This document shows positions 7,997-54,689 of a DNA stretch of 64,000 bases, in pieces. The position numbers and the translations under genes were made by a program. Each line of letters opens with the position of its first letter. Within the stretch, counting starts at the first letter, position 1. The DNA lies in assembly GCA_900315575.1 (NCBI GenBank), contig OMZR01000001.1:16071-80070 (forward strand), written 5' to 3'. The DNA comes from an uncultured Veillonellaceae bacterium. Lineage in GTDB: Bacteria > Bacillota > Negativicutes > Selenomonadales > Selenomonadaceae. Under the pieces are notes generated by a model. It saw only the letters and a program-made list of their open reading frames with translations, was not told where the DNA came from and did no database searches.

Positions 7997-8018
7997 AAAT
8001 ATTTGGACATACTGAAAT

Positions 8019-8054
8019 GGGACGACCGCAAAAACGCGATCGCCCCGTTTTTTT
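8019..8054 (+). terminator. rho-independent terminator after metY
   Basis: Imperfect GC-rich hairpin GGGACGACCGC/GCGATCGCCCC followed by T8. Confidence 0.55.
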
Positions 8055-8241
8055 TGAGTGAACAACAAATTCTCCATTGCGCAGGTGTTTGTTAATCGTC
8101 TCGTGGTATCCTATGGCAAGCTAAAGAAACCGCGAACAAGAAAGGAAATCGACATGGCAGACGGACACATATTTTCAAGAAAAAGCATTGCTCGTCGGTG
8201 AGCGAACTGTGTGAGAAGTGTGGCGCAATAGGGAGGAGCTT

Positions 8242-11200: not shown

Positions 11201-11565
11201 TTGGAAAAGTAGCGTATATTTCCGGTGACACGAAGTATTATGCTGGCGGATTTATGGGGATTCTGAGACCGAAAGCAAAGGATGAAGTTCCGCAATATAT
11301 TTACTTTGTATTAAATACACCGTTCATGCGAGATTATGTCCGTAATGATGCCGCAGGTGCGAACATCAAGAACTTATCGAATCAGATAGGAAAGATAAAA
11401 ATTCCTGTTCCGCCAGTGGAAATCCAAAAGAAGATAGTTGACGAGTGCGTGGAGATTGAAGGAGAATATCAAACGACGCGAATGGCGATTGACGATTATC
11501 GCGCTCGTATTGAAGTCCTCTTCCAAAAGTTTGATGTAATCGGGGGGGGAGACAATAAAGCTTGA
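8242..11565 (+). CDS. fused restriction endonuclease / N6-adenine DNA methyltransferase / specificity (TRD1) protein, type IIB/IIG-like; truncated relative to the reading frame restored at the G8 tract
   Basis: N-terminal PD-(D/E)xK-like nuclease signature (ADICVF ... PLFIIECK at 8641..8652). Methylase motifs DYACGAGHFL and LVANPPYAV (NPPY at 9949..9960). C-terminal HsdS-like TRD (LRQLTDFVDVIRGVTYDK ... IKIPVPPVEIQKKIVDE). RBS GGGAGGAG lies upstream of the ATG at 8242. Confidence 0.85.
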   Translation: MITKDNLRQVLDAIGFQQNSLGIYEKTYSIFDCCIAVDFQHEIIQYPEDHGMKIERHTTDNFAKPENFVVLECVDRLLTKGYRPEDIELERKWTLGHMTSGSEDSGFADICVFRQTSDGKEKKDGEARQPLFIIECKTAGKAYKKEYNNMLSDGGQLFSYWWQEHSCKFLVLYASDFEHGAVTYVTDSVDCNDDKNLLVMAEKAKKARRDDTIHLYCDAKSKEELYTCWDETYDRRFCGDVIFRDDSVAYEIGAKPLRKRDLDDFSKNDKVVNRFEEILRHNNVSDKENAFNRLIALFICKLVDEMQKQEDDVVDFQYKVGTDTYETLQDRLQRLHKDGMEKFMREEIFYVPDTYAENVVQQFTGAQRGQLVAELKKTLRILKFYTNNDFAFKDVHNEELFYQNGKIVVEVVQLFQGYRIIGSSDLQTLGDLFEQLLNKGFKQNEGQFFTPVPITRFIWDSLPLRTFVQKDGRIEYPKIIDYACGAGHFLTQGIEAVRELLTEGKDKNGDEAWVSDHVYGVEKDYRLARVSKISLFMHGAGDANVIFGDGLENYREKGIAPGTFDILVANPPYAVKSFKSHLKLHDNDFRLLDAISNDGGEIETLFVERIAQLLKPGGLAAVILPSSILSKDSGSCNGAREELLQHFYIHAITCFGGKTFSATNTDTVVLFLQKIKEPPIRFRLVADSADAILSGRPLSDWEDEKIFAQYLAQVECSEEDYRKFLAETMPYTNFVETPYFRNYVDAFENLAETKNKRRQKSFQNMNVEEQSAWLNQRFYTLVKEREREKLRYFAMVYQQTVLVITAPVENKKQKSFLGYDWTNRRGNEGIVILNEGGMLYNPQNRSARDTFAALIRSTFEHTQAITEYPKEYYKYFPLKDMIDFTRIDFNKSIRTTGVNRMKLSSKYPLRQLTDFVDVIRGVTYDKTDQVLDETPNVILTADNITLDGHFEVSKKIYLRENKIIPDEKRLKDKDCFICFSSGSLQHIGKVAYISGDTKYYAGGFMGILRPKAKDEVPQYIYFVLNTPFMRDYVRNDAAGANIKNLSNQIGKIKIPVPPVEIQKKIVDECVEIEGEYQTTRMAIDDYRARIEVLFQKFDVIGGGDNKA
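11542..11549 (+). repeat. homopolymeric G8 tract at the junction of the RM fusion gene and the downstream TRD ORF
   Basis: The sequence cgggggggga was counted directly. The stop TGA at 11563 follows in the current frame. The alternative frame is open from the tract into ORF 11585..12061. Confidence 0.95.
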
Positions 11566-11584
11566 TGCAACGGACAAATTCCAG

Positions 11585-12061
11585 ATGACCATCGGCAAGC
11601 GCGTCTTGAGTTCCGAGCTTCTGCCAACTGGCATTCCCGTGTACAGCGCAAACGTGCAAGAGCCGTTCGGGTATATCCGTGCATCATTTTTCAAGGATTA
11701 TAATGTTGGCACGATCCTTTGGGGGATTGATGGGGATTGGGATGTTCGTTACATCCCGCCGCAGATGCCGTTCTATCCGACAGATCATTGCGGGACGTTG
11801 CGAGTACAGGCCACTGATGTCAATGCGCGTTACCTTGCTTTTGCGCTCCATGCCGAAGGGGAACGCCGGCGCTTTACACGGACAAATCGTCCGTCACTCG
11901 ATCGCGTGCGAGCGTTGCGGTTGGAGCTGCCACCTAAGCAACAGCAGGATGTTTTCGTCAACGAAGTTGAACGCATGGAATCCCAAATTGCAAAGTTGGA
12001 AGAAAAGCGAAAGATGCTGGAAGGAAAGAAGCAGGGGATTTTGAAAAAGTATTTGTTGTAA
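11585..12061 (+). CDS. HsdS-like target recognition domain (TRD2) plus coiled-coil tail; probably the detached C-terminus of the upstream RM protein
   Basis: MTIGKRVLSSELLPTGIPVYSANVQEPFGYI ... RPSLDRVRALRLELPPKQQQDVFVNEVERMESQIAKLEEKR is typical of a type I S-subunit half. The frame is open back to the G8 tract (..IKLDATDKFQ upstream of the ATG). Confidence 0.8.
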   Translation: MTIGKRVLSSELLPTGIPVYSANVQEPFGYIRASFFKDYNVGTILWGIDGDWDVRYIPPQMPFYPTDHCGTLRVQATDVNARYLAFALHAEGERRRFTRTNRPSLDRVRALRLELPPKQQQDVFVNEVERMESQIAKLEEKRKMLEGKKQGILKKYLL

Positions 12062-12195
12062 TCAAGCCTCTATCCGAATTCTCGCACGCACCAAAATAAA
12101 ATATCATCGCACGCCCAAAACAGCGTTCCTCCGTATTGAAGGATGCTGTTTTTTGTGTGTGGGGTCTGTCACTTCTTGTTATAGAGAGTGGGGAT

Positions 12196-13839
12196 TCAGG
12201 GAAGGAACGTTTCTTTCCAATCGGTAATCGTCCGTTCCTCCGGCGCATAGCAGAAGTTGATGCCGACGGCATGGATGGTCTGGCCTTTTTCGCGGGCGGG
12301 ACGGAGGTACTTTTCGGCGTAGGCTTTTTCATCAATCTGGGCGAGGGCGGCGTCTGCCGTTTTTTGGAGCTTGAACCCGAGGATGTAGAGATGTTTTCCC
12401 GCGTCGAGCACGGCATCGATGCGGCCTTTGTTCGTTACGACTTCTGTCAGGATGTCCATGCCGCAGAGGCGGCAGATGGTGTAGATGATGGACTGATAGT
12501 ATTTTTCCGCCTTGATCTGGATGTCGTAGGGGAGGCCGGCGAAGAAATCCTTCCAGACGTCCACCATATCCTCCGTGCGGCCGCTTTCTGCGGCTGAGAG
12601 GAGTTCATAGAGGTACTTTGTCGGACGGCGTGGAGCGGTGTAGGCACTGAGGAGTTCTCGCGCAAAGGAATAGGCGACTTCATGATTCGGGAAACGCATC
12701 TTGAAAAGGCGTTCTGGAAGTGTGGCGGCAAGCTGGTCGACGGTCAGATACCCTGTTTGGAAAAGCAGGTCGAGGATGCGCTCGTCCTCAACTTGTGTGC
12801 CTGCAAGTTCAGCGATGTCGAACGTATCCAGATAACTTTCGGAGAGCAACGTACCATCGATGTCAGGAACGGTCAGACAATTGCGCTTCAGGAGATTTAC
12901 GAGAAACGTTGGCGTTCCTGTCTCAAACCAAAAATTTTTAAAGGTATGATGATTGAGGAAAAATTTTCCGATTGAAATGGGATTGTAGACCGTTTCTGCG
13001 TTCTCCGAAAAACGAAAGCCGTCATACCAGAGCTTGATTTCCGTGAGGAGTTCAGTGCGGTTGAGGAGGCCGTCCTTGCTTAGAACAGCGTGGACGCCAT
13101 CTTTGACAGCCGCATCCAGCCAGGCAGAGAAGTTTGCTTCGAGCTCTTGCTGCGTGTAGCCGAACATGCAGGCGAATTCTGGACGCATGGTGATGTCCGT
13201 CAAGTGATTCAGCTTGCTGAAGACGGAGAGTTTTGCAATCTTTGTCACGCCCGTCAAAAATGTGAAGCGCAGGATGGGTTCGGCTCCTTTGATGATCTGA
13301 TAGAATGACGAAAGGAAATTGCGGTAGAGTTCCGCATCCTTGGCGTTGTCCAGATGCTCAAAGACCGGCTTGTCGTATTCATCGATGAGGAGGACAACTT
13401 CCGTGTCCGTTTTGTCATAGAGTGCGCGGATCAGCTTGTTGAAAAGCAGAGCAGGATCGTCATCCGTGAGTTTCAGTCCGTAACTTTTTGCAATCTCTTC
13501 CAGCTGGTAGCAGAGCGATTTCTGCAGCTGCGGCATCGTGTCCATGACGCATTGCGTGAAGTCGATATGGATGACGGGATATACCTGCCAGTCGTAATCG
13601 GCGCTGCCGAGATACAGCCCGTCAAAGAGCTCACGCCGGCCGCGGAAGACGGCTTCGAGTGTCGAGATGGTCAGGCTCTTGCCGAAGCGGCGCGGACGGG
13701 TGCAGAAGAACTGGCCTTTTGTGACTTTGAGCAGCTTGTAGATGTAAGCGGTCTTGTCGACGTAGAGGCAGTGGTTTTCGATGAGGTCGGAAAATGTGTA
13801 GACCGAGGTCGTGATTTCTTTCAGGTTCGTCGTGTCCAT
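12196..13839 (-). CDS. AAA-ATPase-like protein with C-terminal PD-(D/E)xK nuclease-like domain (AAA-ATPase_like/PDDEXK_9 architecture)
   Basis: The N-terminus YTFSDLIENHCLYVDKTAYIYKLLKVTKGQFFCTRPRRFGKSLTISTLEAVFRGRRELFDGL is the hallmark of this family. The C-terminus has GRIDAVLDAGKHLYILGFKL. Confidence 0.8.
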   Translation of the reverse strand: MDTTNLKEITTSVYTFSDLIENHCLYVDKTAYIYKLLKVTKGQFFCTRPRRFGKSLTISTLEAVFRGRRELFDGLYLGSADYDWQVYPVIHIDFTQCVMDTMPQLQKSLCYQLEEIAKSYGLKLTDDDPALLFNKLIRALYDKTDTEVVLLIDEYDKPVFEHLDNAKDAELYRNFLSSFYQIIKGAEPILRFTFLTGVTKIAKLSVFSKLNHLTDITMRPEFACMFGYTQQELEANFSAWLDAAVKDGVHAVLSKDGLLNRTELLTEIKLWYDGFRFSENAETVYNPISIGKFFLNHHTFKNFWFETGTPTFLVNLLKRNCLTVPDIDGTLLSESYLDTFDIAELAGTQVEDERILDLLFQTGYLTVDQLAATLPERLFKMRFPNHEVAYSFARELLSAYTAPRRPTKYLYELLSAAESGRTEDMVDVWKDFFAGLPYDIQIKAEKYYQSIIYTICRLCGMDILTEVVTNKGRIDAVLDAGKHLYILGFKLQKTADAALAQIDEKAYAEKYLRPAREKGQTIHAVGINFCYAPEERTITDWKETFLP

Positions 13840-14056
13840 CGCGCGTCAAGCCTTCCTTTCTGCAGAGGATTCGTTCTGTCTCTGATTATATCTTGCCTGT
13901 CGAAAGATTGCCAGAGCCATCGTCATGGACTTTTTCAAATTTTTTTCATGAAAGCAGGAACCTTCCTACAAGAAAGCGAATTATACCCAAAAGGATAGGA
14001 AGTATGTAGAATACCATGGGAAGTATTCAGATAGAGTGGAGAAGGGAAGCGGTTTC

Positions 14057-28001: not shown

Positions 28002-28047
28002 GTGGGGGCGTATCTGGTAAAATGAAGAAAAATGTTGCTTTTAAGAG

Positions 28048-28229
28048 CAGCCCCCCTCATTGAGGGGGGACGGGCCCGAAGGGCGGGGGGAGTAGTAGGG
28101 AGCTATAGCCGAACAAAAAGCTGGTTGTAGGTAAAGGCTTTTAGCTGCAACGAAAAAACTCGTTCGGCTATCGCATCTTACTACTCCCACCACCGCTTCG
28201 CGGTCCCCCTCCCTCAATGAGGGAGGCTT
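28048..28229. mobile_element. MITE-like composite element: two inverted family-A heads flanking a palindromic core
   Basis: The left arm GCAGCCCCCCTCATTGAGGGGGGACGGGCCCGAAGGGCGGGGGGAGTAGTAGGG is an imperfect inverted repeat of the right arm CTTACTACTCCCACCACCGCTTCGCGGTCCCCCTCCCTCAATGAGGGAGGCTT. The core contains ATAGCCGAAC...GTTCGGCTAT. Confidence 0.8.
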
Positions 28230-30447: not shown

Positions 30448-30574
30448 AAAATTGCTGCCTCCTTGCGCGTACGTGTGTGACGTACATTTTGGATTAAAAA
30501 TAAGGACAGTTCCTATTGTAGCACAAGAAAGGACAGCTGTCTCCTGATTCGCGAGAAAAAGTTACAGAGAGTTC

Positions 30575-30703
30575 GTGGTCGCGGAGATTTGTTCGTGCTC
30601 GGACGCGGCCATGGGAGGTCTGTCGAAACCCACGGACGATTCCTTAACGGGTTTCTTGCAGACCTCCCATGGCCGCTCGAAGTTTGGCCTGGCGCACGCG
30701 AAG
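30575..30703 (+). repeat. family-B structured repeat (copy B1)
   Basis: Perfect 18-bp outer stem GCGGCCATGGGAGGTCTG (30605..30622) / CAGACCTCCCATGGCCGC (30659..30676). Inner stem GAAACCC/GGGTTTC. Conserved loop ACGGACGATTCCTTAAC. Flanks GTGGTCGCGGAG ... GGCGCACGCGAAG. Confidence 0.9.
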
Positions 30704-30715
30704 TTGATTTTTCGT

Positions 30716-30800
30716 CAGCCCCCCCCCTCATTGAGGGGGGACGGGCCCGAAGGGCGGGGGGAGTAGTTGGGTGCTGGAGCCTGACAAATCATCGCTTCCC
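30716..30800 (+). repeat. family-A head plus fragment of the composite-element core
   Basis: CAGCCCCCCCCTCATTGAGGGGGGACGGGCCCGAAGGGCGGGGGGAGTAGTTGGGTGCTGGAG. The last part matches the reverse complement of 39172..39190. Confidence 0.75.
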
Positions 30801-30810
30801 TAAGCTCATT

Positions 30811-32940
30811 TCATAAAATCCCCACCATCTTCAGCAGATACTCCGCATTCGTCGTGACGCACCGTCCCTCCCTCAGCCGGTAGTCAAACGCGATCTTTCC
30901 ATCCTCATAGTGTTCTTCAAAATGGGCGTTGCGGATGATGCCGCCTGGGGGTTCGAGCGTGCACAGTTCGAAATCATGCGTGGAGACGAGGGCGATGGTG
31001 TGGTCGTTTGTGAGACGCGAGAGCGCGGCTTCGGCACCGGTGATACGGTCGGCGCTGTTCGTGCCTTTGAAGATTTCATCGATGAGCAGCAGCAGCGGCT
31101 GGCCGGTTTCTTCAGCGGCGACCATGGTTTTGATGCGCAGGAGTTCGGCGTAGAAGGTGGAGATGCCGTGTGCGAGGTCGTCGTCGACGCGGATGGAGGT
31201 GTAGAGGGCGAGGGGCGAGAGGGCAAAGCGCTCAGCACAGACGGGGGCACCGGCCCAGGCGAGGATCGCGCTCATGCCGAGGGTGCGGAGCCAGGTGGTT
31301 TTGCCACTCATGTTCGATCCTGTGACGATGGTGGTGGAGGCGGCGAGGTCAGCGCTGTTTGGAACGGCGGTGGTTTCGGAGAGCAAGGGATTTTCGAGGG
31401 CCTGCGCAGTGATGTGCGGGCCTTTTTCTGCTGGCAGAAATTCGGGGTAGCAGAAGTGTACGCGCGTCGCAGGGATGGTGGAGAGGGAGAGCAGGACTTC
31501 GAATTCGCTCCAGACGGCGAGAAATCGTGGCAGGCGGGCGCCGTCCGTGCGGCACCAGCGGCGGAAAGAGAGGCCGGCGGCGAAGTCGAAGAGGAAGAGG
31601 GCGTTCGCGAGGGCGTAGAAGAAGAAGTTGCGGCGGGCTGCGACCCACGAGGCCAGGAGGGCGAGGCGGTGGAGGGATTGGGAGGCAGTGGTCGTGGTCG
31701 CGGAGGTTGGCTCGACGTTCGCGGAGTCGGGCTCGAGGTCGGACGCGGGCACGGGGGATTCACCGAAATCCACGGACGATTCCTTAACGGATTTCTTGTG
31801 AATCCCCCGTACCCGCTCGAAGGTTGGCTCGGCGCACGCGGAGTCGCTGTTCGTGGTCGCGGAGGTGGGCTCGTGGTCGGACGCGGTCAGGGGAGGCCTG
31901 CCGAAACCCACGGACGATTCCTTAACGGGTTTCTTGCAGGCCTCCTCTGCCCGCTCGAAGATGGGCTTGGCGCACGCGGAGGCACGATTCGTGGGCGCGA
32001 AGATTTGTTCGTGATCGGGCGTCGGCGCATCGCCGAGGAGGATGGATTGGAGTTCTGCTAAGTGGGGGCTGTGAAAGTGGGATTGTTCGATGGTGCGGAA
32101 GAGTTGCTCGTAGGCGGCAAGCGACGTTGCGAGGGGGCCGAGGAGAGCGAGGGCTTGGTCGGTTTGGCGGGCGGTGAGCCAGGCGAGGAGGAAGGAGAGG
32201 GCGAGGAGGGTGCCGGGGATGAGCCAGGAGAGGAGGCCCGCGGCGGCGCAGAGGAGGGTGATGAGGTTCAGGGGGACAAGCGTGACGCAGGCTGTGATGC
32301 GCCAGCGGGAGAGGCGGGGGCCTTCGCGGTCGAGGAGAGCGAGCAGGGGCGCTGTGTCGTGGCCTTCGGGCAGCAGGGCGCCGCAGGTTTCGAGCGTGAG
32401 GGCGAGGCGACGGTGTTCGGCGAGTTCGCGCAGGGCACCATGGCGAGCGCGGAGCAGGGTGGTGTCGTCAGGGGCTTTGGTGCGGAACGAGGCGGCGAGG
32501 CGGTCGCGGCCGGCTTTTGTGCGCGCACGGCAGAGATACTGATAGAGGGAGGCGGGGCCGAAGACGTGGAGGTCGGCGAACTGCGGCGGGGCACCCGGGG
32601 AGAGGCGGCCCGCGCCATCTTCGGGGAGCTGTTTCCAGCTGTCATCGAAACGTGCGAGAATGTCGGAGAGGACGGAGAGCTCGGCATCGCAGGTGAGAAT
32701 CTGCTGCGCGATGCGGTGGTGGCGCGTGACGAGCCGTACGAAAATGAACGCGAGCGCGATGGCGAGTGCATAGAATGGCGTGCGGCCGTCATAGCCCGCT
32801 GCGAAGGTGAAGACAGCGAGCGCGAAGGTCGCCGTGCGGAGAAATACAATCCGGCGGGATTCGCGGCGGAGCGTCGTACGGGTAGAAAGGGAGGTCTCGC
32901 GGGCGGAGAGGTAGAATTGGGAGAGGGAAGGAGCTGGCAT
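30811..32940 (-). CDS. MutS-related protein (membrane-associated N-terminal region plus MutS domain-V ATPase), carrying an in-frame repeat-derived insert
   Basis: C-terminal IVTGSNMSGKTTWLRTLGMSAILAWAGAPVCAE ... GISTFYAELLRIK ... LLLIDEIFKGTNSADRITGAEA ... LVSTHDFEL. Several hydrophobic helices lie N-terminally. The start MPAPSLSQFYL at 32940 is preferred because 32941..33153 is family-B repeat sequence. Confidence 0.8.
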   Translation of the reverse strand: MPAPSLSQFYLSARETSLSTRTTLRRESRRIVFLRTATFALAVFTFAAGYDGRTPFYALAIALAFIFVRLVTRHHRIAQQILTCDAELSVLSDILARFDDSWKQLPEDGAGRLSPGAPPQFADLHVFGPASLYQYLCRARTKAGRDRLAASFRTKAPDDTTLLRARHGALRELAEHRRLALTLETCGALLPEGHDTAPLLALLDREGPRLSRWRITACVTLVPLNLITLLCAAAGLLSWLIPGTLLALSFLLAWLTARQTDQALALLGPLATSLAAYEQLFRTIEQSHFHSPHLAELQSILLGDAPTPDHEQIFAPTNRASACAKPIFERAEEACKKPVKESSVGFGRPPLTASDHEPTSATTNSDSACAEPTFERVRGIHKKSVKESSVDFGESPVPASDLEPDSANVEPTSATTTTASQSLHRLALLASWVAARRNFFFYALANALFLFDFAAGLSFRRWCRTDGARLPRFLAVWSEFEVLLSLSTIPATRVHFCYPEFLPAEKGPHITAQALENPLLSETTAVPNSADLAASTTIVTGSNMSGKTTWLRTLGMSAILAWAGAPVCAERFALSPLALYTSIRVDDDLAHGISTFYAELLRIKTMVAAEETGQPLLLLIDEIFKGTNSADRITGAEAALSRLTNDHTIALVSTHDFELCTLEPPGGIIRNAHFEEHYEDGKIAFDYRLREGRCVTTNAEYLLKMVGIL
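31695..32020 (+). repeat. family-B tandem array (2 full units plus a partial) lying inside the MutS-related CDS
   Basis: Units have stems GCGGGCACGGGGGATTCAC/GTGAATCCCCCGTACCCGC and GCGGTCAGGGGAGGCCTG/CAGGCCTCCTCTGCCCGC around the conserved loop. They are translated on the minus strand as ..ACAKPIFERAEEACKKPVKESSVGFGRPP.. and ..ACAEPTFERVRGIHKKSVKESSVDFGESP.. Confidence 0.9.
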
Positions 32941-32955
32941 GGGAAAGATCCTTTC

Positions 32956-33296
32956 GTGGTCGCGGAGATTGGTTCGAGGTCGGACGTGGGCAGGGGGAGG
33001 TCTGCCGAACCCCACGGACGAGTCCTTAACGGGTTTCTTGCAGACCTCCCCTGCCCGCTCGAAGAATGGATTGGCGCACGCGAAGCTGCGGTTTGCGGTC
33101 GCGCAGATTTGTTTGAGGTCGGACGCGGACACGGGGGATTCACCGAAATCCACGGACGATTCCTTAACGGATTCCTTGCGAATCTCCCGTACCCGCTCGA
33201 AGTCTGGATTGGCGCACGCGGAGACGCTGTTCGAGGCCGCGGAGATTTGTTCGTGCGCGGGAGGAGGCCTGATGCACGCGGAGTAGCCTCGGAGCC
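32956..33296 (+). repeat. family-B tandem array (2 full units plus a partial)
   Basis: Same unit structure as B1. It lies between the MutS-related start and the stop of the upstream M48 gene. Confidence 0.9.
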
Positions 33297-33297
33297 A

Positions 33298-33390
33298 GCC
33301 CCCTTCTAGAGGGGGGACGGGCCCGAAGGGCGGGGGGAGTCCCTTGTACGGCTTAACAAAAAGCAGGGACAGATTTCCGCGGGTGCGATA
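33298..33390 (+). repeat. family-A structured repeat, long form (A3)
   Basis: GCCCCCTTCTAGAGGGGGG-AC-GGGCCCGAAGGGC-GGGGGGAGTCCCTTGTACGG...ATTTCCGCGGGTGCGATA. Confidence 0.85.
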
Positions 33391-33399
33391 GAGCGACGT

Positions 33400-34080
33400 T
33401 TACCGGTTTAAAAGCGTCCGTACCTTTTTCCACTCCGGCATAAACTTCGTCATGAGCCCATAGAACCTTGCATTGTGATATTTCTCGACAAGGTGCAGCA
33501 GCTCATGCAGCAGAATATAGTCGAGGCAGACCCTCGGATGATGGACGAGCTGCAAATTGATCCAGATCCTGCGGTCGCGGGTATTGCATGTCCCCCATCT
33601 TGTTTTCATGTCTTTTGTGCGCCATTCTTCGGCATAGAGGCCGGTGAGGTGCTCGATGACGGGCAGGCGCTCGGCGATGGCTTTGGAAAGTTCGCCGCGC
33701 AGGATCTCGCGCAAGAGCGCGGCGCGGTGGGCGGCATCGGTGCCGGGACGGACGCTGAGGATGATGCGCGTGCCGTCTTTTGCTGCATGCGGATGGCAGC
33801 CCGGCACTTCGTGCACGACGAGCACGTGCGGCTTGCCCCAGAGATAGAGCGTTTCGCCAGTCGCTGTGGAGGCGGGCGTCATCGGCGGGCGGCGTTGCAC
33901 GTCGGCGTATGCTTTTTGCAGCCAGCCCGCGCGGGCGCGCAAAAAAGCGTCGATGTCTTCGCGCCGCATGCGGATCGGGGCGGAGAGCAGCGCACGGCCG
34001 TCGGGCTTGACGCGCAGGTAGATGTTTTTGATACGTTTCTGCGTGACTTCGACCGGAATGCCGGCAACGGTGAGCTTCAT
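33400..34080 (-). CDS. M48-family/YgjP-like metallopeptidase (DUF45)
   Basis: RWGTCNTRDRRIWINLQLVHHPRVCLDYILLHELLHLVEKYHNARFYGLM (HExxH). Confidence 0.85.
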   Translation of the reverse strand: MKLTVAGIPVEVTQKRIKNIYLRVKPDGRALLSAPIRMRREDIDAFLRARAGWLQKAYADVQRRPPMTPASTATGETLYLWGKPHVLVVHEVPGCHPHAAKDGTRIILSVRPGTDAAHRAALLREILRGELSKAIAERLPVIEHLTGLYAEEWRTKDMKTRWGTCNTRDRRIWINLQLVHHPRVCLDYILLHELLHLVEKYHNARFYGLMTKFMPEWKKVRTLLNR

Positions 34081-34217
34081 GGAGATCGCCTCGCTTGCTG
34101 GAAGTTTCCTTCATTGTAAAGGAAAGCGGGAGGCGAGGCAAGCGCCTGACGCTTCGGGACAAGGATTTTTTCGCCGGATGTAGAATATAGACGGGAGAAA
34201 GGGAGGCGGAGCATTTT

Positions 34218-34988
34218 ATGAACGAACAGAAAGCGCAGGAACGGCCCGTCGTCGTGCAGGGCGCGATGTCCGTGGAGACAGCGGAGCTCATCGGGGCGAT
34301 GTCGGACGCGGTCGAGGAGCCGTTCGGCCCGTGGCGCATGGTGCGCGGGCAGCTCTTCGGCCATCCGCTCGTCGTTTGCGAGACGCAGTGGGGCATGGCG
34401 AATGCGGCGGCGCTTGCGGCCATCGCGATCGATCGGTATCATCCGGCCGCGCTCATCAGCCAGGGGACGGCGGGCGCGCATGAGGCGTCGCTCAATGTCT
34501 ACGACATCGTGCTCGGCGTGCAGACGGTCAATGAATCGGCATGGCAGTCGCATTATCGTCCGGTGGGCGCGGGTGCGCCTTATGACGATCTCAAGAAGCT
34601 CGGTGTCTTTGCCTGGGATGCGGAGAAAAAGGAATTTACGCAGGAGGTATCTCATGCGGCAGACGCGGGGCTGCTCGCGGCGGCGCGGCGGGCGGTGCCG
34701 CAGTATGCGCGCGGCAAGGTCGTGGAGGGCGTCATCGGGACGTGTGACAGCTGGAACTGCGCGATTGACCGCGTGAATTTCCTGCATGATTTCTATGGCT
34801 CGCTCTGCGAGGAAATGGAGGGCGACGCTGTTGCGCAGATCACGCAGTCGCTTGGTGTGCCGTTCCTTGCCATCCGGATCATTTCGAACAGCATTCTGCA
34901 TAATCAGGATCCGTGGGATCTCGGGACAGGGCCGGCGTGCCAGAGATTTGTGATGGAGGTGCTGAGGGAATGGTGGTCGCGGAAGTAG
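34218..34988 (+). CDS. mtnN: 5'-methylthioadenosine/S-adenosylhomocysteine nucleosidase
   Basis: VVVQGAMSVE, ISQGTAGA, EEMEGDAVAQI, FLAIRIISN. The last codons (..EWWSRK-stop) coincide with the left end of a family-B unit. Confidence 0.8.
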   Translation: MNEQKAQERPVVVQGAMSVETAELIGAMSDAVEEPFGPWRMVRGQLFGHPLVVCETQWGMANAAALAAIAIDRYHPAALISQGTAGAHEASLNVYDIVLGVQTVNESAWQSHYRPVGAGAPYDDLKKLGVFAWDAEKKEFTQEVSHAADAGLLAAARRAVPQYARGKVVEGVIGTCDSWNCAIDRVNFLHDFYGSLCEEMEGDAVAQITQSLGVPFLAIRIISNSILHNQDPWDLGTGPACQRFVMEVLREWWSRK

Positions 34989-35455
34989 GGCTCGTGGTTG
35001 CGGAGACAGGTTCGTGCGCGGACGCGGCCAGGGGAGGCCTGCCGAAACCCACGGACGATTCCTTAACGGGTTTCTTGCAGGCCTCCCCTGACCGCTCGAA
35101 GATGGGCTGGTGTGCGCGAAGAGGGGCATGGCTTCGCAGTCGCGGAGGCGGGCTTGTAGTCGGACGCGGGCACGGGGGATTCACCGAAATCCACGGATGA
35201 TTCCCTGCGGGCGCAATGATAAATTCGTCCGTCCATCTTGGCGCATCTTTTTTACCCTCTCTTCGTCGGCAAATCCTTGACGTAGCTTTGCTACGCCTGC
35301 GGACTTGCCTCCTCGATAGGGCAAAAAATCTGCGACAATCTGGACGAACTCATTTTATCATTGCGTCCTTGACGGAGTTCTTGCGAATCCCCCGTGCCCG
35401 CTCGAAGATAGATCTGACGCACGCGAAGTTGAGATTTGTACACGCGGCGCAACCT
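34972..35455 (+). repeat. family-B tandem array (one intact unit, one unit interrupted by a nested element, plus partials)
   Basis: Intact unit with stem GCGGCCAGGGGAGGCCTG/CAGGCCTCCCCTGACCGC. The second unit GCGGGCACGGGGGATTCAC...GCGAATCCCCCGTGCCCGC has its loop split at 35204/35366. Confidence 0.9.
35205..35365. mobile_element. small TIR-bounded insertion (MITE-like) nested in the loop of a family-B unit
   Basis: Terminal inverted repeats GCGCAATGATAAATTCGTCC (35211..35230) and GGACGAACTCATTTTATCATTGCG (35342..35365). The loop sequence ACGGATGATTCC | insert | TCCTTGACGG shows a short TCC duplication. Confidence 0.7.
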
Positions 35456-35462
35456 TGGAGCT

Positions 35463-35556
35463 AGCCCCCTTCTAGAGGGGGGACGGGCCCGAAGGGCGGG
35501 GGGAGTCCCCTGTAGGGCGATTGAAATAGCAGGTCGTTTCTTCCGCGGGTGCGATA
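35463..35556 (+). repeat. family-A structured repeat, long form (A4)
   Basis: GCCCCCTTCTAGAGGGGGG-AC-GGGCCCGAAGGGC-GGGGGGAGTCCCCTGTAGGG...TTCTTCCGCGGGTGCGATA. It ends 24 nt before the larE ATG. Confidence 0.85.
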
Positions 35557-36404: not shown

Positions 36405-36500
36405 GCCCCCCTCTAGAGGGGGGACGGGCCGCGTGAGCGGCGGGGGGAGTCCCCTGCATGGCGGGGCAAGCAGCAGAATGTGTTTTCCGCGGGTGCGAAT
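36405..36500 (+). repeat. family-A structured repeat, long form (A5)
   Basis: GCCCCCCTCTAGAGGGGGG-AC-GGGCCGCGTGAGCGGC-GGGGGGAGTCCCCTGCATGG...TTTTCCGCGGGTGCGAAT. Hairpin 2 is GCCGC-GTGA-GCGGC. The repeat starts directly after the larE stop. Confidence 0.85.
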
Positions 36501-39023: not shown

Positions 39024-39050
39024 TGGCAGAAGTGGAACTGACCTTATACA

Positions 39051-39236
39051 GCAGCCTCCCTCATAGAGGGAGGGGGACCGCGAAGCGGTGGTGGGAGTAG
39101 TAGGATACTGAAGCCGAACGAGGTCGTTGTTTTCACTAAAGTCCTTTAGCAACGTTCCACATACTTGTGTGTCTCCAGCATCCAACTACTCCCCCAGTCT
39201 CGCTTCGCTCGACAGCCCCCTCAATGAAGGGGCCTT
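39051..39236. mobile_element. second copy of the MITE-like composite element (inverted relative to 28048..28229)
   Basis: Left arm GCAGCCTCCCTCATAGAGGGAGGGGGACCGCGAAGCGGTGGTGGGAGTAGTAGG. Right arm ACTACTCCCCCAGTCTCGCTTCGCTCGACAGCCCCCTCAATGAAGGGGC. The core shares AGCCGAACGAG with the other copy. Confidence 0.75.
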
Positions 39237-40484: not shown

Positions 40485-40496
40485 TAGATAGGTAGA

Positions 40497-40620
40497 GCGC
40501 TCGCGGAGAGGCAGTCGTGCCCGGACGCGGCAAACAGGGGCCTGCCGAAACCCACGGACGATTCCTTAACGGGTTTCTTGCAGGCTCCTTTTTGCTGCTC
40601 GAAGATGAGCAGCGGACGCT
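40497..40620 (+). repeat. family-B structured repeat (B6)
   Basis: GCGGCAAACAGGGGCCTG-CCGAAACCCACGGACGATTCCTTAACGGGTTTCTTG-CAGGCTCCTTTTTGCTGC. Confidence 0.85.
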
Positions 40621-40677
40621 ATCTCTTTTTTGCTCTGCATGATATAATGAGAAAAAGAGTTGCGAGGAGGGAGTTGC

Positions 40678-41571
40678 ATGAAAAAGGTTCCACACTACGA
40701 CCCGACAAATGACCTCGTGTTCAAGTTCGTTTTCGGCCGTGAGGAACGGAAGAACGTCACGCTCAGGTTCATCAACGACATGACAGGGCGCGAAGGAAGC
40801 AATGCCTTTGTTGACCTTGATTTCCGGAACTCCGAACTCGTGCCGGACAAGGAAGATGACAAGCTCGGGCGACTGGATGTCTTCGGTATCCTTGACGACA
40901 GGACGCGCGTCGATGTCGAGATGCAGGTCTTCAATCATCGGAACATGGAAAAGCGCTCGCTTTTCTATTGGGCGCACATGTACCTGCATTTTGATGCGCT
41001 GAAAAGCGGACAGGGCTATCGACAGATCAAGCCGGCCATTGCCATCAACATCTTGCGGTTCCCATTCCTACCGACGGAGGCGCCGTTCTCGCAGTATGGT
41101 ATCTATAACATCAAGAATCAGCATAAGCTGACGGATGACCTCGAACTTGATTTTCTCGAAATCCCGAAATACAGGAACAAGCCTGTGAAAGAGATGAACC
41201 GCGTCGAGCGTTGGCTCGCATATTTTGCGAACCGGCTGGACGATGATGGGAAGGAGGAACTCGCCATGTCGAATCCGGAGATTGCTGAGGCGATGGAGGC
41301 CTCGGATCGCTTCATGATGGACGACAAAGCTTATTTCGAGTACCTGCAGCGCGAATCCGCCATCTGGGATTATAACAACGACATGGCGGGGAGCCGTGAA
41401 GAGGGCCGCGAAGAAGGCCGCGAGGAGGGACGCGAAGAGGGCGAGCGTTTGAAGACGGAGAGCTTCGTCCGTAATTTGCTTGCAGCAAAGATGTCGTATG
41501 AAGAAATTGCACGTTTGGCAGAGACGACAATCGAAAATGTCGAACGGATTGCAAAGGCGTCAGGACAGTAA
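40678..41571 (+). CDS. Rpn family recombination-promoting nuclease/putative transposase (YhgA-like PD-(D/E)xK)
   Basis: DLVFKFVFGREERKNVTLRFINDM ... DDKLGRLDVFGILDDRTRVDVEMQV ... KRSLFYWAHMY. Contains an (EEGR)x4 tandem repeat. Confidence 0.85.
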   Translation: MKKVPHYDPTNDLVFKFVFGREERKNVTLRFINDMTGREGSNAFVDLDFRNSELVPDKEDDKLGRLDVFGILDDRTRVDVEMQVFNHRNMEKRSLFYWAHMYLHFDALKSGQGYRQIKPAIAINILRFPFLPTEAPFSQYGIYNIKNQHKLTDDLELDFLEIPKYRNKPVKEMNRVERWLAYFANRLDDDGKEELAMSNPEIAEAMEASDRFMMDDKAYFEYLQRESAIWDYNNDMAGSREEGREEGREEGREEGERLKTESFVRNLLAAKMSYEEIARLAETTIENVERIAKASGQ

Positions 41572-41594
41572 TAAGAACAGAAGATTATTGAGAG

Positions 41595-42242
41595 ATGGCA
41601 GCAATGACAAAGCAGAAGAAAGAGCTCCCTTTGTGGATGCAGTTGCAAGTAGTGTCATCTTATAGCCGTGGCTGGGCATTGCTTTTATGCCTTTGCGGGT
41701 TCTTCACGATAGGCGGGTTGCATCGATTTTATGTACGACGTTGGATATCTGGCATCCTTTATCTTTTAACAGGCGGAGTGTTCATGGTAGGGACGCTTTA
41801 TGATCTGATTCAGATACTTCGTGGAGAGTTTGACGATGATTGTGGACTGCATCTGGAATCGGCATTGCGTAAACGCTGGGATGATCGACATGCTGTTTGG
41901 CGATATATTGGAAGTACACCAGGGGTGGGTCGCTACTATATCAATCGAGACACGATAGATCATTCGGTTCCAAACCAGGTCACTTGCAGCTTCCTCGTAA
42001 AAATCAATTCGCTGGGTGCAGCGGCTATGAAGTCACATGGGATGCCGGGCAACGTTGTTTATGGAATTAGTCGGGTATGTTTCGAAAATGACGATGGCTC
42101 TGTTTATGTAACACCCCTTGAAGGAGAGTTTTGGGATAAAACAAAATGCATCATGCAACGAGATGAAAATCTTGGGGGAGCAGAATATGTCGATCCAAAC
42201 TCGATGTATGATACAGTTTATCAGGCTGCATACCGATTTTAA
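41595..42242 (+). CDS. TM2 domain membrane protein with an extra C-terminal domain (possibly adhesin-E-like)
   Basis: LLCLCGFFTIGGLHRFYVRRWISGILYLLTGGVFMVGTLYDLIQIL is the TM2 signature. The C-terminal family call is only a weak impression. Confidence 0.6.
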   Translation: MAAMTKQKKELPLWMQLQVVSSYSRGWALLLCLCGFFTIGGLHRFYVRRWISGILYLLTGGVFMVGTLYDLIQILRGEFDDDCGLHLESALRKRWDDRHAVWRYIGSTPGVGRYYINRDTIDHSVPNQVTCSFLVKINSLGAAAMKSHGMPGNVVYGISRVCFENDDGSVYVTPLEGEFWDKTKCIMQRDENLGGAEYVDPNSMYDTVYQAAYRF

Positions 42243-42256
42243 CGATAGCGTCTATG

Positions 42257-42300: not shown

Positions 42301-43101
42301 TTACCGCCCGATCATCATGATGGCGCCGCCGATCGTCGGCATGGCGACGATGCAGAATTTCAGGACGGGCATAGGGGCGAGGTGGGTGCCTTTCGCACCG
42401 AACCAGGCGCCGATCATGAGGCCGGAGAGGGTCTGGAGAAAGATGGAGAGGTCGAGGTGGCCAGACACCAGGTAGCCGAGGCCACCGGCGGCGGAGACGG
42501 GCAGGATGATCATCATGCAGGTGCCGATGGCCTGGATGAGCGGGACGCCGAAGATGACCATGAGCGCGAGCTGGATGTAGGCGGCTGCGCCGATGCCGAA
42601 TGCGCCGGAGAGGAAGCCGCAGATGAGGCCCGTGAGGATGCCGTAAATCCAGAGCTTCCGTCCTGTGAGCAGCGTCTCGCGTACAGGGAAGTGGGCGGCG
42701 AGCCATTCGGCGTGGTAGAGCTTGACGTAGAGGATGACGGCGGACGAAAGGATCATGAGCGCCGTCATGAACGAGAGGTCGGCGGCGGGCAGAATGTTCG
42801 ACGTGGCCGCGCCGAGCAGAGCGCCGACGATGCCGCCGGAGCCGATAATGGCACCGACTTTCGGGATGACTTCGTGTTGGCGGAAATGGGAGAGGGCGCC
42901 CGAGAGCATGGTGAAGACCATGGAGGCGAGTGCGACGGCAAGGGCCGTGTGGATGGGGACGCCGAAGCCGACGACGAGCAGGGTGATGGTGACGCCGGCC
43001 CCGCCCGCACCGACAAAGCCGATGAGGGCGCCGAGGATGAGCATGGATGCAAAGATCATAAAAGTTCCTTTCGTAGTCGCTGGCATCGCGGGGGCTTTCA
43101 A
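42301..43101 (-). CDS. sulfite exporter TauE/SafE family protein
   Basis: Polytopic. LIGFVGAGGAGVTITLLVVGFGVPIHTALAVALASMV, GAFGIGAAAYIQLALMVIFGVP. Confidence 0.85.
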   Translation of the reverse strand: MKAPAMPATTKGTFMIFASMLILGALIGFVGAGGAGVTITLLVVGFGVPIHTALAVALASMVFTMLSGALSHFRQHEVIPKVGAIIGSGGIVGALLGAATSNILPAADLSFMTALMILSSAVILYVKLYHAEWLAAHFPVRETLLTGRKLWIYGILTGLICGFLSGAFGIGAAAYIQLALMVIFGVPLIQAIGTCMMIILPVSAAGGLGYLVSGHLDLSIFLQTLSGLMIGAWFGAKGTHLAPMPVLKFCIVAMPTIGGAIMMIGR

Positions 43102-43262
43102 CGAAATCCGGGACGTTCGCTGCGCTCACTAAAACGGATTTCTTATGAAAGTCCCCGTGATGCCCGAAGTTGCGAGGATGCAACAGAACCCACGGACGAT
43201 TCCTTAACGGGTTCCTTATGCATCCCCGTTTCCGCCCGAAGAAGTATTCGCGAACGCGCAGG
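43075..43262 (+). repeat. two degenerate family-B units (B7 with a divergent loop, B8 with the canonical loop)
   Basis: B7 has stem GGCATCGCGGGGGCTTTCA/TGAAAGTCCCCGTGATGCC, inner stem GAAATCC/GGATTTC, and a different loop. B8 is GGATGCA-ACAGAACCCACGGACGATTCCTTAACGGGTTCCTTA-TGCATCC. Confidence 0.75.
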
Positions 43263-43340
43263 AAAGCCCAACGCCGCGAAGAGACGTTGTCGAGAGACAG
43301 CATGGCGCTTTTGAAGAAACGGAGCGTTTCTTTTTGCGAA

Positions 43341-43437
43341 GCCTCCCTCTTTGAGGGAGGGGGACCGCGAAGCGGTGGTGGGAGTCCCCTGCATGGCGAA
43401 ACAATTCGTACGGCAGAACTTTCGCGGGTGCGATATA
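43341..43437 (+). repeat. family-A structured repeat, long form (A6)
   Basis: GCCTCCCTCTTTGAGGGAGG-GGG-ACCGCGAAGCGGT-GGTGGGAGTCCCCTGCATGG...CTTTCGCGGGTGCGATATA. Both hairpin stems carry compensatory changes relative to A1. Confidence 0.85.
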
Positions 43438-43477: not shown

Positions 43478-43552
43478 TGGTGACACCTATGGGATTCGAA
43501 CCCATGAACCCGGCGTGAGAGGCCGGTGTCTTAACCGCTTGACGAAGGTGCC
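43478..43552 (-). tRNA. tRNA-Glu (anticodon CUC)
   Basis: Reverse complement GGCACCTTCGTCAAGCGGTTAAGACACCGGCCTCTCACGCCGGGTTCATGGGTTCGAATCCCATAGGTGTCACCA. It folds as a cloverleaf with anticodon stem CCGGC/GCCGG, loop CT-CTC-AC, T-arm ATGGG/CCCAT, and an encoded CCA. Confidence 0.9.
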
Positions 43553-43554
43553 GA

Positions 43555-43629
43555 TGGTGACGCCTATGAGATTCGAACTCATGAACCCGGCGTGAGAGGC
43601 CGGTGTCTTAACCGCTTGACGAAGGCGCC
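43555..43629 (-). tRNA. tRNA-Glu (anticodon CUC), second tandem copy
   Basis: Reverse complement GGCGCCTTCGTCAAGCGGTTAAGACACCGGCCTCTCACGCCGGGTTCATGAGTTCGAATCTCATAGGCGTCACCA. It differs from copy 1 only by compensated acceptor and T-stem changes. Confidence 0.9.
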
Positions 43630-53773: not shown

Positions 53774-54565
53774 ATGGAAGAAAAAATGAAGAAACGGATG
53801 TTTTCTGGAATGCTCGTAGCGGCCGTTGCCGTTGCGGGGCAGTTCGTCCAGCCGCAGGCGGGGATGCCTGCGGTCGGCATGCAGCAGGCGGAAGCCTTCA
53901 GCCTCGGCGGTGCGCTGGGCAGCGTCCTCAATGCGGTGTTCCAGCTCGACATGGGCAGCATGCAGAGCCATCAGCAGAGCCTGATGAAGAATCTCGCCTG
54001 GGCGGCACAGCTCGAAGCCGTTTCGGCGGAGCGCTGGGGTCATGTCGCGAATGTCGATACGGCGCGCGCAGCCGCTGCTTCGAACAGCGCGAAGGCGTTC
54101 CTCCAGAACGGCGACTATTCCCTGCCGAAATTCAAGGCATTCCATTCGTCGTTCGCATCGAACATCGCGCTTTCCGATGGCGACAAGACGCAGATGACGA
54201 CGTCGCTCGACAACCTGATGACGGACAAGGACAAGCTGACGACGGAGCAGAACACGCAGTACGTCACGGAGGCAAAGAAAGCGCGCCGCATGGCGGCAAC
54301 GTATAACGCGCTGGCGGCCAAAGATGCGGCCTACATCATCCATGGCGCCGTGAAGGCATTCGCGAGCGGCAATCTCGGCGACCAGCTTTCGGCTGTGCAG
54401 AGCATGGCTGATGTTGCGAAGGAAGCTCAGTCCTTCCTGAAGCTTCAGCGGGACGTTTCGAAGGAGCGCGCCAATCTGACGCAGAAAGCCGAAAAAGCCA
54501 TGAACGTCAAGGATCCGAGCGACAAGGATGCGAAAGCATACGCAAAAAGCCTCGGCATGGAATAA
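53774..54565 (+). CDS. secreted, predicted alpha-helical protein, paralog 1 (unknown family)
   Basis: Signal MKKRMFSGMLVAAVAVAGQ. Shares the blocks LAWAAQLEAVSAERWG, ASNSAKAFLQNGDYSL, KDKLTTEQNTQYVTEAKKARRMAATYNALA, SKERANLTQKAEKAMNVKDP and a C-terminal SLGME with the next gene. Confidence 0.75.
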   Translation: MEEKMKKRMFSGMLVAAVAVAGQFVQPQAGMPAVGMQQAEAFSLGGALGSVLNAVFQLDMGSMQSHQQSLMKNLAWAAQLEAVSAERWGHVANVDTARAAAASNSAKAFLQNGDYSLPKFKAFHSSFASNIALSDGDKTQMTTSLDNLMTDKDKLTTEQNTQYVTEAKKARRMAATYNALAAKDAAYIIHGAVKAFASGNLGDQLSAVQSMADVAKEAQSFLKLQRDVSKERANLTQKAEKAMNVKDPSDKDAKAYAKSLGME

Positions 54566-54645: not shown

Positions 54646-54689
54646 ACAGTGAAAAAAGTTCTTTTTGAGTGAAGATAGGAGTCTTGGTC

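Follow-up and report, generated by a model that had tools for sequence, protein, structure and literature searches.

Interspersed palindromic repeats such as REP (repetitive extragenic palindrome), ERIC, RPE and Correia elements are known mainly from Proteobacteria, and both their mode of action, at the level of DNA or of RNA, and the manner of their maintenance are debated. ERIC sequences, also termed IRU, are reportedly imperfect palindromes of ~127 bp located at gene boundaries within transcription units, and their orthologous copies are said to be conserved with compensatory changes, longer variants being attributed to insertions at fixed internal points. REPs comprise 20-40 nt, the CGTC families among them having stems of ~8-9 bp, and form dimers that are head-to-head or tail-to-tail, while head-to-tail dimers are rare (PMC3733652). 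The Y1 transposases of the IS200/IS605 insertion sequences (IS) act on hairpins in single-stranded DNA (ssDNA) of the lagging-strand template, and the same has been proposed for REPs and the REP-associated tyrosine transposases (RAYTs) (PMC6006769, PMC5027513). RPEs are palindromic units of ~100-150 bp that are found in frame in unrelated protein genes, where they add a linker peptide, and also between genes (PMC10969869). The repeat described here, termed family B, was found in a stretch of 64 kb (henceforth the window; contig OMZR01000001.1 of assembly GCA_900315575.1, positions 16,071 to 80,070) from an uncultured Veillonellaceae bacterium. Its stem is free to vary in sequence yet remains paired, its loop is frozen and its orientation tracks replication, features which together argue for recognition of a DNA hairpin over recognition of an RNA.

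A first-pass annotation of this DNA had claimed a repeated structured unit with a conserved 17-nt loop, and this stands: the loop ACGGACGATTCCTTAAC has 8 matches in the window with at most one mismatch, all of them on the plus strand, where 0.11 would be expected by chance. Each unit is composed, in this order, of flank r1 TTCGTGGTCGCGGAG, flank r2 TTCGTGSTCGSNSGCGG, the hairpin, the motif CCGCYCGAAG and flank r3 GCRCGCGRAG. The hairpin itself comprises an outer helix of 16-19 bp, a small internal loop (CC/TTG), an inner helix of 7 bp and the 17-nt loop; overall, it measures 23-26 bp with a loop of 17-21 nt. A covariance model trained on 48 units (8 from the window and 40 from four rumen Selenomonas metagenome-assembled genomes, MAGs) recovers 8 full units in the window with scores of 99-145 bits (at 30567, 31707, 31845, 32948, 33097, 34986, 40489 and 43128), and also matches both halves of an interrupted unit (35134.. 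and ..35438) as well as a hairpin-less remnant at 33235-33293. No genuine minus-strand copy was found in the window with this model, since its weak minus-strand hits are the same palindromes read backwards. In total, the window contains 8 intact units, one unit split by a nested palindrome of 160 nt, one variant-loop unit and 2 hairpin-less remnants, all on the plus strand and, as had been noted before, irrespective of the strand of the neighbouring genes. They are distributed over 6 sites between 30.57 and 43.27 kb, and the probability that 6 sites fall within 12.7 kb of a 64-kb window by chance is ~0.002.

The start-to-start spacing inside arrays is exactly 138 nt, or 46 codons, according to a repeat search that yielded families of 7-9 copies, so that the unit length of 110-130 nt given initially has to be revised. 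In every array, one ..GGGGATTCAC unit is joined to one ..GGAGGYCTG unit to form a heterodimer, whichever of them comes first, as is also the case in L009, L017, L031, L004 and L046 (L numbers denote loci outside the window); two subtypes had thus been distinguished correctly, and what had been described as their alternation amounts to a single heterodimer per array. Likewise, a unit is present at the position of the solo copy reported at 43075..43262, but it forms a dimer of a variant-loop unit (43060-43168) and a canonical unit with a truncated 5' arm. The conservation of the loop holds for the dominant subfamily and is not universal, since units with the same flanks and other loops exist (L005_5536, L017_1641, L010_3550, L014_5025, L026, L040 and window 43060-43168); the fixed loop hence marks that subfamily and not the whole family.

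Pairing of the stem is maintained by changes on both of its sides. RNAalifold predicts the hairpin from the alignment of the 48 units, and 19 of its 26 pairs keep pairing through changes in both partners. In a version restricted to 23 pairs, 92.5% of the cells are standard pairs as compared to 77.1 ± 0.7% in shuffled alignments (none of 500 shuffles reached the observed value), only 37-57% of the cells pair once the 3' partner is slid by 1-3 columns, the covariation score amounts to 0.489 versus 0.191 in the shuffles, and double changes occur in 19 of the 23 pairs among the 48 copies. These values substantiate the covarying double stem, and the selection at the level of structure, that had been put forward from inspection. 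Moreover, 14 pair positions display double changes from one Watson-Crick pair to another within 13 groups of orthologous copies, that is, copies that share the same flanking genes in different genomes, and copying of whole palindromes, the explanation that would have undone the earlier reading, therefore does not account for the stem pairing. Among mismatched cells, G·T (28) and A·C (34) are equally common, and neither RNA strand is thus favoured by wobble tolerance. As DNA, six of the seven full-length canonical units fold at -33 to -40 kcal/mol with z = -2.7 to -5.3, while the weakest fold is that of unit 33088-33232 (-22.9 kcal/mol, z = +0.6). The covariation of the hairpin is real, and pairing is kept by compensatory change around a fixed loop. 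An extended pairing of the flank motifs, which arises in some single-sequence folds by way of G·T pairs, receives no support from the alignment fold and was discarded.

A comparison of orthologous copies reveals a graded constraint along the unit. Pairwise divergence between orthologs is 0.006 in the loop (4 of 697 positions), 0.137 and 0.101 in the 5' and 3' arms, and 0.29 and 0.21 in the left and right flanks, respectively, with third codon positions of adjacent genes diverging by 0.12-0.35 in the same genome pairs. Where ~150 differences would be expected in the loop at the neutral rate only 4 are seen, and the loop changes ~30-fold more slowly than synonymous positions; the arms evolve ~2-fold more slowly than the flanks, and more than 5-fold more slowly in several ortholog groups, while the flank motifs drift at about the neutral rate. 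This pattern of divergence indicates that the loop and, to a lesser extent, the arms are under purifying selection at individual loci. Since the B loci were fetched by exact loop match, they are subject to ascertainment, and L046, which was retrieved via an identical Fe-ADH protein, provides a check that is free of this bias: although it shares no more than ~82% identity with the window across the YgjP-PNP region, all five of its B units have perfect 21-nt loop cores. The sole physically interrupted loop, in unit 35134-35446, has acquired 2 substitutions in its remnants.

The window has a positive GC skew over its entire length, and 72% of its coding bases lie on the plus strand, which together identify the plus strand as the leading-strand sequence and thus as the lagging-strand template. 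Of 30 loci, 28 have B in the orientation that corresponds to the sign of the GC skew around them, whether repeats are masked or not; counted by independent site, ~15 of 17 agree (binomial p = 0.002), and the variant copy L040 agrees too. For these comparisons, replication direction was read from GC skew over MAG contig pieces of 2-8 kb, which is a proxy and involves no mapped origins. The majority gene strand, on the other hand, has no such relation to B, with ~14 loci co-oriented and 12 anti-oriented, and in the window four of the 6 sites lie in minus-strand and two in plus-strand transcription units. Neither sigma-70-like promoters nor intrinsic terminators were detected in or beside B units. 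An orientation that is linked to skew and independent of gene strand, in elements devoid of promoter and terminator, argues against a strand-specific RNA role and favours a DNA hairpin formed in one template strand.

In a search of one genome per species across 185,579 species, the 21-mer loop core CCACGGACGATTCCTTAACGG matched only four rumen MAGs with 31 loci, namely RUG371, RUG12578, SUG490 and HCA3 bin22, which are labelled Selenomonas, Selenomonadaceae or Veillonellaceae, and the window is in addition 99.7-99.98% identical to rumen metagenome scaffolds in ENA. The family is spread over ~12 unrelated genomic regions in 5 genomes, while by a rough count at least half of the canonical copies of each genome lie in one neighbourhood of ~15-20 kb (50-60% per MAG). 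A flank-based pattern applied to metagenome contigs, meant to avoid ascertainment by the loop, gave 4 true matches, among them L040 with its variant loop, and 8 chance matches in high-GC DNA. The exact loop 21-mer had no match in the viral contigs of IMG/VR, nor did one B unit have any by blastn against plasmid and phage collections; hence, there is no sign of a plasmid or phage origin. Rfam 15 returned nothing for B at gathering and permissive thresholds, given that only two tRNAs pass in the window and sub-threshold matches are generic miRNA-hairpin noise, and no description of such a repeat in Selenomonas was found in the literature. A 103-aa peptide encoded by B matched only 2 short open reading frames (ORFs) among 5.8 billion protein sequences, which implies that the Selenomonas lineage is barely represented among them. 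As far as these collections reach, family B is a lineage-specific repeat confined to a few uncultured rumen Selenomonas genomes.

Copies of B mark junctions of indels and rearrangements. At site P, for instance, HCA3 is empty, its PNP_UDP_1 gene and the next gene overlapping by ATGA, while the window carries ~600 nt of B array plus an element of a second repeat, family A, in between; an imperfect 8-nt repeat, GAGGG[A/C]AT, is found at the two junctions of the whole block of B array and family A, and no target-site duplication is evident around single B units. The variant unit of site T is present in the window and RUG371 and cleanly absent from RUG12578 and SUG490 in a four-genome alignment, and one hairpin deletion at this site is bounded by AAGTT microhomology. 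The MutS-like gene of the window is bracketed on both sides by B-A repeats; it is present in L027/L028 and missing in RUG371, RUG12578 and SUG490 (L004, L012 and L017/L031), where a single B(-array)-A is left, a comparison to be read with the caveat of MAG assembly. The unit at site X7 constitutes the left edge of a 1.77-kb insertion (40486-42253) carrying a PDDEXK_2 (Rpn-like) gene and a TM2 ORF. In strain L045, which is 99.7% identical to the window, 18 differences are clustered at 31799-31887 inside the intragenic array; they render its unit 2 more similar to the site-P unit, and one added base splits the MutS-like gene by a +1 frameshift. Judged from the sequence, this tract may have arisen by ectopic conversion or else be a chimera of the assembly.

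A minority of copies, 3 of ~60, lie inside genes, all three antisense to B. The array at 31691-32027 is read in frame on the minus strand of the MutS-like gene and its frame is open throughout, while the HCA3 ortholog aligns on both sides and lacks both hairpins, retaining a flank-motif scar ..ACGCGGAG..CTCGTGGTCGCGGAG.. in their place. In L010, one unit lies in frame in HypF, within the 70-aa linker between the YrdC-like and Kae1-like domains, and a variant unit occurs in frame in a gene of the (nitrogenase-like) Oxidored_nitro family. The two intragenic copies with canonical loops (MutS-like and HypF) read the loop as V-K-E-S-S-V in the frame ..KKPVKESSVGF.., though four of the six frames through B are mostly stop-free, so that this shared reading frame is not significant by itself. 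As far as the analogy goes, the in-frame habit of B matches the description of RPE.

With respect to gene context, the solo unit of site S lies between the stop codon of the MutS-like gene, together with a family-A element, and the promoter of a Na/Ala symporter gene, and it has orthologous copies in L004, L012, L017 and L028, while array M lies on the other side of the MutS-like gene, 7 nt upstream of its start codon. The coordinates of all units are compiled in Table 1. The palindrome nested in array P (35205-35365) is ~160 nt long and imperfect, with arms of ~65 nt and a central GACGTAGC-TTT-GCTACGCC hairpin, and sits exactly in the B loop; it is the only copy in the window and the loci retrieved, and the region of the interrupted unit folds as a whole at -140 kcal/mol. 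Extra loop sequence is also seen in L026 and L005_5536, and the loop hence seems to be a hot spot of insertion. The near-identical metagenome scaffolds L044 and L047 have only two differences from the window in common, namely a C9/C6 change of length in the poly-C arm of a family-A hairpin (30719-30721) and G/T at 35377, a position in the inner stem of the interrupted B unit at which the other strains carry the pairing base. The islet at site X7 separates the Fe-ADH gene from the TauE gene and lies upstream of the bidirectional terminator that these two genes share, and its TM2 ORF has a low GC content at third codon positions. In RUG371, the corresponding islet (L008 800-6100) contains B along with an AAA_5 ATPase, a DUF2357/PDDEXK_7 protein (McrBC-like) and a divergent PDDEXK_2 gene, and in HCA3 (L027 7165-7183) there is nothing at this site.

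Table 1. Family B units, family A elements and the MutS-like host gene in the window (window coordinates).
Feature	Position	Strand	Score or basis
Site S, solo unit	30567..30713	+	145.2 bits; perfect 18-bp outer stem; fold -37.1 kcal/mol, z = -5.3
MutS-like host gene, 709 aa, MutS domain V, Walker A GSNMSGKT	30811..32940	-	Pfam MutS_V 5e-26
Intragenic array, 2 full units (ATTCAC type, then CCTG type)	31691..31991	+	31707-31844 119 bits; 31845-31991 139 bits
Hairpin-less partial unit closing the intragenic array (only r1 and r2 flank motifs)	31982..32027	+	sequence; motif match at 31988; alignment with L027
Array M, 2 units (CTG type, its loop carrying one substitution, followed by ATTCAC type)	32948..33233	+	132 and 115 bits
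Remnant with flanks kept and hairpin deleted, 5' arm GGAGGAGGCCTG alone left	33235..33293	+	13.6 bits over model positions 11-144, middle missing
Array P, unit 1 (CCTG type)	34970..35131	+	140 bits; PNP_UDP_1 gene stop codon (34986-34988) inside left flank
Array P, unit 2 (ATTCAC type), loop split by nested palindrome	35134..35446	+	covariance-model half-hits; 2 substitutions in loop remnants
Site X7, solo unit	40489..40633	+	113 bits; 4 nt past Fe-ADH stop codon
Site T, variant-loop unit, loop GGGACGTTCGCTGCGCTCACTAAAAC, same flanks	43060..43168	+	fold -27.6 kcal/mol, z = -4.9; four-genome alignment
Site T, canonical-loop unit, upstream of TauE gene start	43166..43271	+	98.9 bits; outer 5' arm lost to neighbouring variant unit
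Family A elements	3559-3651, 5762-5854, 28046-28117, 30717-30788, 33297-33389, 35463-35555, 36407-36499, 39028-39098, 43342-43434	+	repeat families D5, D7, D8

A gene that might act on the repeat was sought by several routes. Among essentially all genes of the window, Pfam revealed no Y1/HUH transposase, integrase or IS transposase, and tblastn with two approximate Y1 queries, IS200 TnpA and the Escherichia coli RAYT, gave only noise in the 31 related loci (~310 kb), a negative of little weight. The only gene of a mobile-DNA type in the window is the PDDEXK_2 gene next to a B copy; it was rejected as a partner because it adjoins a single copy and has no homolog near B in other loci, save the divergent one in the RUG371 islet. 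The gene with MutS domain V was rejected as well, since three genomes lack it and nevertheless retain conserved copies of B.

The likeliest mechanism is that of a DNA hairpin in the lagging-strand template which is read through its loop by a putative protein, a proposal for which belief and doubt are evenly balanced. Family B would accordingly be a lineage-specific, non-autonomous repeated DNA element that behaves like a BIME (bacterial interspersed mosaic element) or RPE, a reading already listed among the possibilities in the first-pass annotation and compatible with its interspersed distribution, its in-frame intragenic copies and its presence/absence polymorphism. The working form would be the hairpin extruded from ssDNA of the lagging-strand template, presumably recognised at the replication fork, where a trans-acting protein may read the invariant loop together with the G-rich inner stem, while the remaining stem need only pair. 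This protein could be an enzyme of the HUH/Y1 type (RAYT or IS200 TnpA, for instance) or a different nuclease or recombinase that is specific for structure. Arrays may grow and shrink by slippage or unequal recombination, and dispersed copies could serve as substrates for homologous recombination. Which protein reads B hairpins is a directly testable question.

Several points weigh against this proposal. Replication direction rests on the GC-skew proxy, and 2-3 sites disagree with it (L019, and X6 in L013/L020). Pfam revealed neither a Y1/HUH transposase nor an integrase or classical IS gene in the window, and the weak tblastn search none in the 31 related loci. The conservation of individual orthologs is unlike that of a selfish decaying repeat and points to a host-level role or an ongoing process, and the clustering of at least half of the copies in one neighbourhood of ~15-20 kb is atypical of freely transposing elements. 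Finally, the upkeep of the stem could partly stem from arm-to-arm template switching and not from selection.

Some of these points are shared by the alternative that B is a chromosomal DNA signal retained by the host and no longer mobile, in which orientation-dependent ssDNA sites would serve replication restart or priming, the polarity of repair or recombination, or chromosome organisation. The conservation of loop and arms at orthologous sites far below the neutral rate, the orientation that tracks GC skew, the strong clustering in one chromosomal neighbourhood and the lack of any transposase among the Pfam-annotated window genes all speak in its favour; however, copies appear dispensable in view of the empty HCA3 sites, the deleted or interrupted hairpins and the variable array length, they occur inside unrelated coding genes, and the family is restricted to a handful of species and includes variant-loop subfamilies. 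In addition, we know of no host system that uses sites of this kind, and the alternative is thus regarded as doubtful, albeit the most serious of those considered. According to a further proposition, considered rather unlikely, B might be more than a selfish palindrome, namely a new kind of replication-strand-specific ssDNA site with a long stem free in sequence and an invariant 17-nt loop, kept at each locus by selection and read by a putative domesticated HUH enzyme or a replication or repair factor, while its local cluster would shape recombination and gene turnover in one neighbourhood.

A role at the level of RNA, be it as a cis element (an mRNA stabiliser, processing site or protein-binding loop) or as a small RNA (sRNA) family, bears the classic signature of compensatory stem changes around a conserved loop, and most copies directly adjoin the end of a gene, together with which they would be transcribed. 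Furthermore, the minus-strand loop contains UAAGGAA, which could bind 30S subunits in the manner of a STAB-SD stabiliser, and the insertion at site P between formerly overlapping genes did not destroy the operon. Nonetheless, either sense of the element is transcribed (antisense at four and sense at two of the 6 window sites) although its two loop strands are not equivalent, G·U is not in excess over A·C, copies occur within coding sequence, and a scan of both strands found nothing in the window complementary to the loop at 14 or more of its 17 bases. The sRNA family suggested at first is disfavoured by the same data, namely the indifference of orientation to transcription (~14 versus 12), the 28 G·T against 34 A·C cells and the lack of promoter or intrinsic terminator in or beside the units and of any Rfam match, while the Shine-Dalgarno-like sequence pointed out in the minus-strand loop is never placed as a working ribosome-binding site and is instead translated as V-K-E-S-S-V in the MutS-like gene and HypF. 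On balance, an RNA role is considered quite unlikely.

It is still less probable, indeed improbable, that B represents functionless, decaying palindromic relics of a past burst whose pairing is kept by quasi-palindrome self-correction through template switching. In its favour, hairpins are deleted by slippage, disrupted by other elements and subject to recombination, mismatches are as often G·T as A·C, and no mobilising gene was found in the searches above, but self-correction cannot hold an unpaired loop of 17-21 nt constant, nor does decay conform to arms that evolve more slowly than the flanks, and the replication-linked orientation bias would be left unexplained. That B is a protein-coding module of 46 residues copied into intergenic DNA is hardly credible, for although its period of 138 nt equals 46 codons and the three intragenic cases are all antisense to B and open, with a common frame in the two canonical-loop ones, most copies are intergenic, 12 of 48 have stops in the ..KKPVKESSVGF.. 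frame with three other frames about as open, the peptide search retrieved only the 2 short ORFs mentioned, and the constraint pattern is that of a hairpin and not of codons.

Family A is a second structured repeat, an exact 31-mer of which occurs 5 times on the plus strand of the window. More than half of the B sites of the window and the MAG loci have it as a regular right-hand partner, oriented like B and at a distance of 60-190 nt from the last unit, and the copy at 30717 directly adjoins B. Its anatomy comprises a hairpin CCCCCC..GGGGGG, a short stem with a GAA or GNRA-type loop and GGGGGGAG; the short stems (GGGCCC-GAA-GGGC, CCGC-GAA-GCGG and GCCGC-GTGA-GCGGC) covary between copies. Alternative modules follow, one of which ends in the highly conserved TTCCGCGGGTGCGA(T/A), a sequence resembling an extended -10 element (TGnGATAnn), and this module is situated just upstream of a plus-strand gene in four of 6 cases. 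A palindromic element that does not occur in the window, family C, reads GAGTGTCGGAGGTAGGG...CTACCTTCGACACT (L009 ~1755-1865, L046 ~6275-6385, L025, L029 and L004 ~1640). Its insertion point directly follows GGGGAG and lies either in the 5' arm of a B unit or where family A ends. Its sequence context suggests that family C may be a target-specific small mobile element.

Other features of the window include two tandem tRNA genes on the minus strand (43481-43552 and 43558-43629, 95% mutual identity) directly to the right of the B-A block of site T, as well as a low-GC island at 8000-14000 (GC 0.46-0.48 versus 0.58 for the window). The latter encodes a 1115-aa fusion of N6_Mtase, Eco57I and type I specificity domains, a 158-aa ORF without family assignment and, on the minus strand, a protein with AAA-ATPase_like and PDDEXK_9 domains; judged by this gene content, it is probably an acquired restriction or defence islet. 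A run of uncharacterised plus-strand genes includes two tandem paralogs without Pfam match (53774-54565 and 54669-55541), which show up as the direct repeats D9 and D12 with 71-79% identity, as well as two lipoprotein-like genes with a FlgT_N domain (56740-57894 and 59955-61076).

Among the known systems, REP, BIME and REPIN elements resemble family B in being interspersed, mostly extragenic palindromes that form ssDNA hairpins, with occasional intragenic copies and with several subtypes arranged in mosaic clusters with other motifs, which in the case of B are families A and C. A link to ssDNA of the lagging-strand template has likewise been proposed for REP (PMC3733652, PMC6006769). On the contrary, the anatomy is inverted: B combines a variable stem of 23-26 bp with an invariant loop of 17-21 nt in a unit of 138 nt, while REP conserves its stem and has a free loop of 4-5 nt, and B arrays are strictly head-to-tail with a 138-nt period whereas REP clusters consist of inverted pairs. 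A fixed GTAG or CGTC tag is not apparent in B, for GTGG or GTAG is found in r2, ~5-9 nt 5' of the hairpin foot, in many copies but is replaced by GTGC, GAGG or GCGG in others, and GACG (CGTC on the other strand) overlaps the hairpin foot in one subtype only; nor was a RAYT detected in the window by Pfam or in the 31 loci by the weak tblastn search.

The palindromic unit of ~100-150 bp lying in frame in genes (MutS_V, the HypF linker and Oxidored_nitro) is a trait that B, compared with RPE by description only, shares with the latter, and B would be a second, independent example outside Rickettsia of palindromic repeats in frame inside proteins. It differs in its occurrence in Negativicutes and not Alphaproteobacteria, in its tandem arrays, replication-linked orientation and conserved-loop architecture, and in the small number of intragenic copies. 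With ERIC, B has in common the palindrome at gene boundaries, the conservation of orthologous sites with compensatory changes and internal insertions, which in B affect the loop; ERIC, however, is reported in either orientation with respect to replication and is presumed to function as RNA; it is not known to form tandem arrays and bears no sequence similarity to B.

Non-autonomous elements derived from IS200/IS605 (PATEs) and other HUH substrates, such as rolling-circle and single-strand origins, depend for their function on a hairpin in one specific DNA strand, as is proposed for B. They further share a fork-biased orientation, which for B was found by the GC-skew proxy, and a combination of structure and short conserved sequence in place of terminal inverted repeats, but they carry two different subterminal hairpins and defined cleavage tetranucleotides, and no TnpA, Rep or relaxase gene was found for B in the searches above. 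B plus A could be read as two different end structures, albeit devoid of definable cleavage sites, and to our knowledge the B loop resembles no nick site. Integron attC sites are comparable as same-orientation ssDNA sites that are defined by structure and have variable paired arms, and copies of B bracket gene blocks of variable presence (the MutS_V gene and the Rpn/TM2 islet); yet what attC conserves is a paired core at the stem base, R''/R' (GTTRRRY), while B conserves its loop, stands in direct tandem and inside genes, and has no integrase gene in the window. A reading as attC was discarded for its wrong anatomy, the bottom-strand GTTAAGG failing the last position of GTTRRRY, and a reading as intrinsic terminator was likewise rejected on anatomy. 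Membership among MITEs, miniature elements derived from DDE transposons, was rejected too, as conserved terminal inverted repeats are lacking, the arms differing from copy to copy, and no IS was found; the inverted resemblance between r1 and the conserved end of the A/D5 module (CTTCCGCGGGTGCGA) is weak, with ~10 of 15 bases by eye.

By these analogies, family B is a repeat of REP/BIME-, ERIC- and RPE-class behaviour, yet its anatomy would place it outside REP, MITE and attC. In an uncultured lineage of Negativicutes, it illustrates how repeats can delimit stretches where genes were gained or lost, and its anatomy and pattern of constraint are unusual within what is otherwise the familiar general class of interspersed palindromes.

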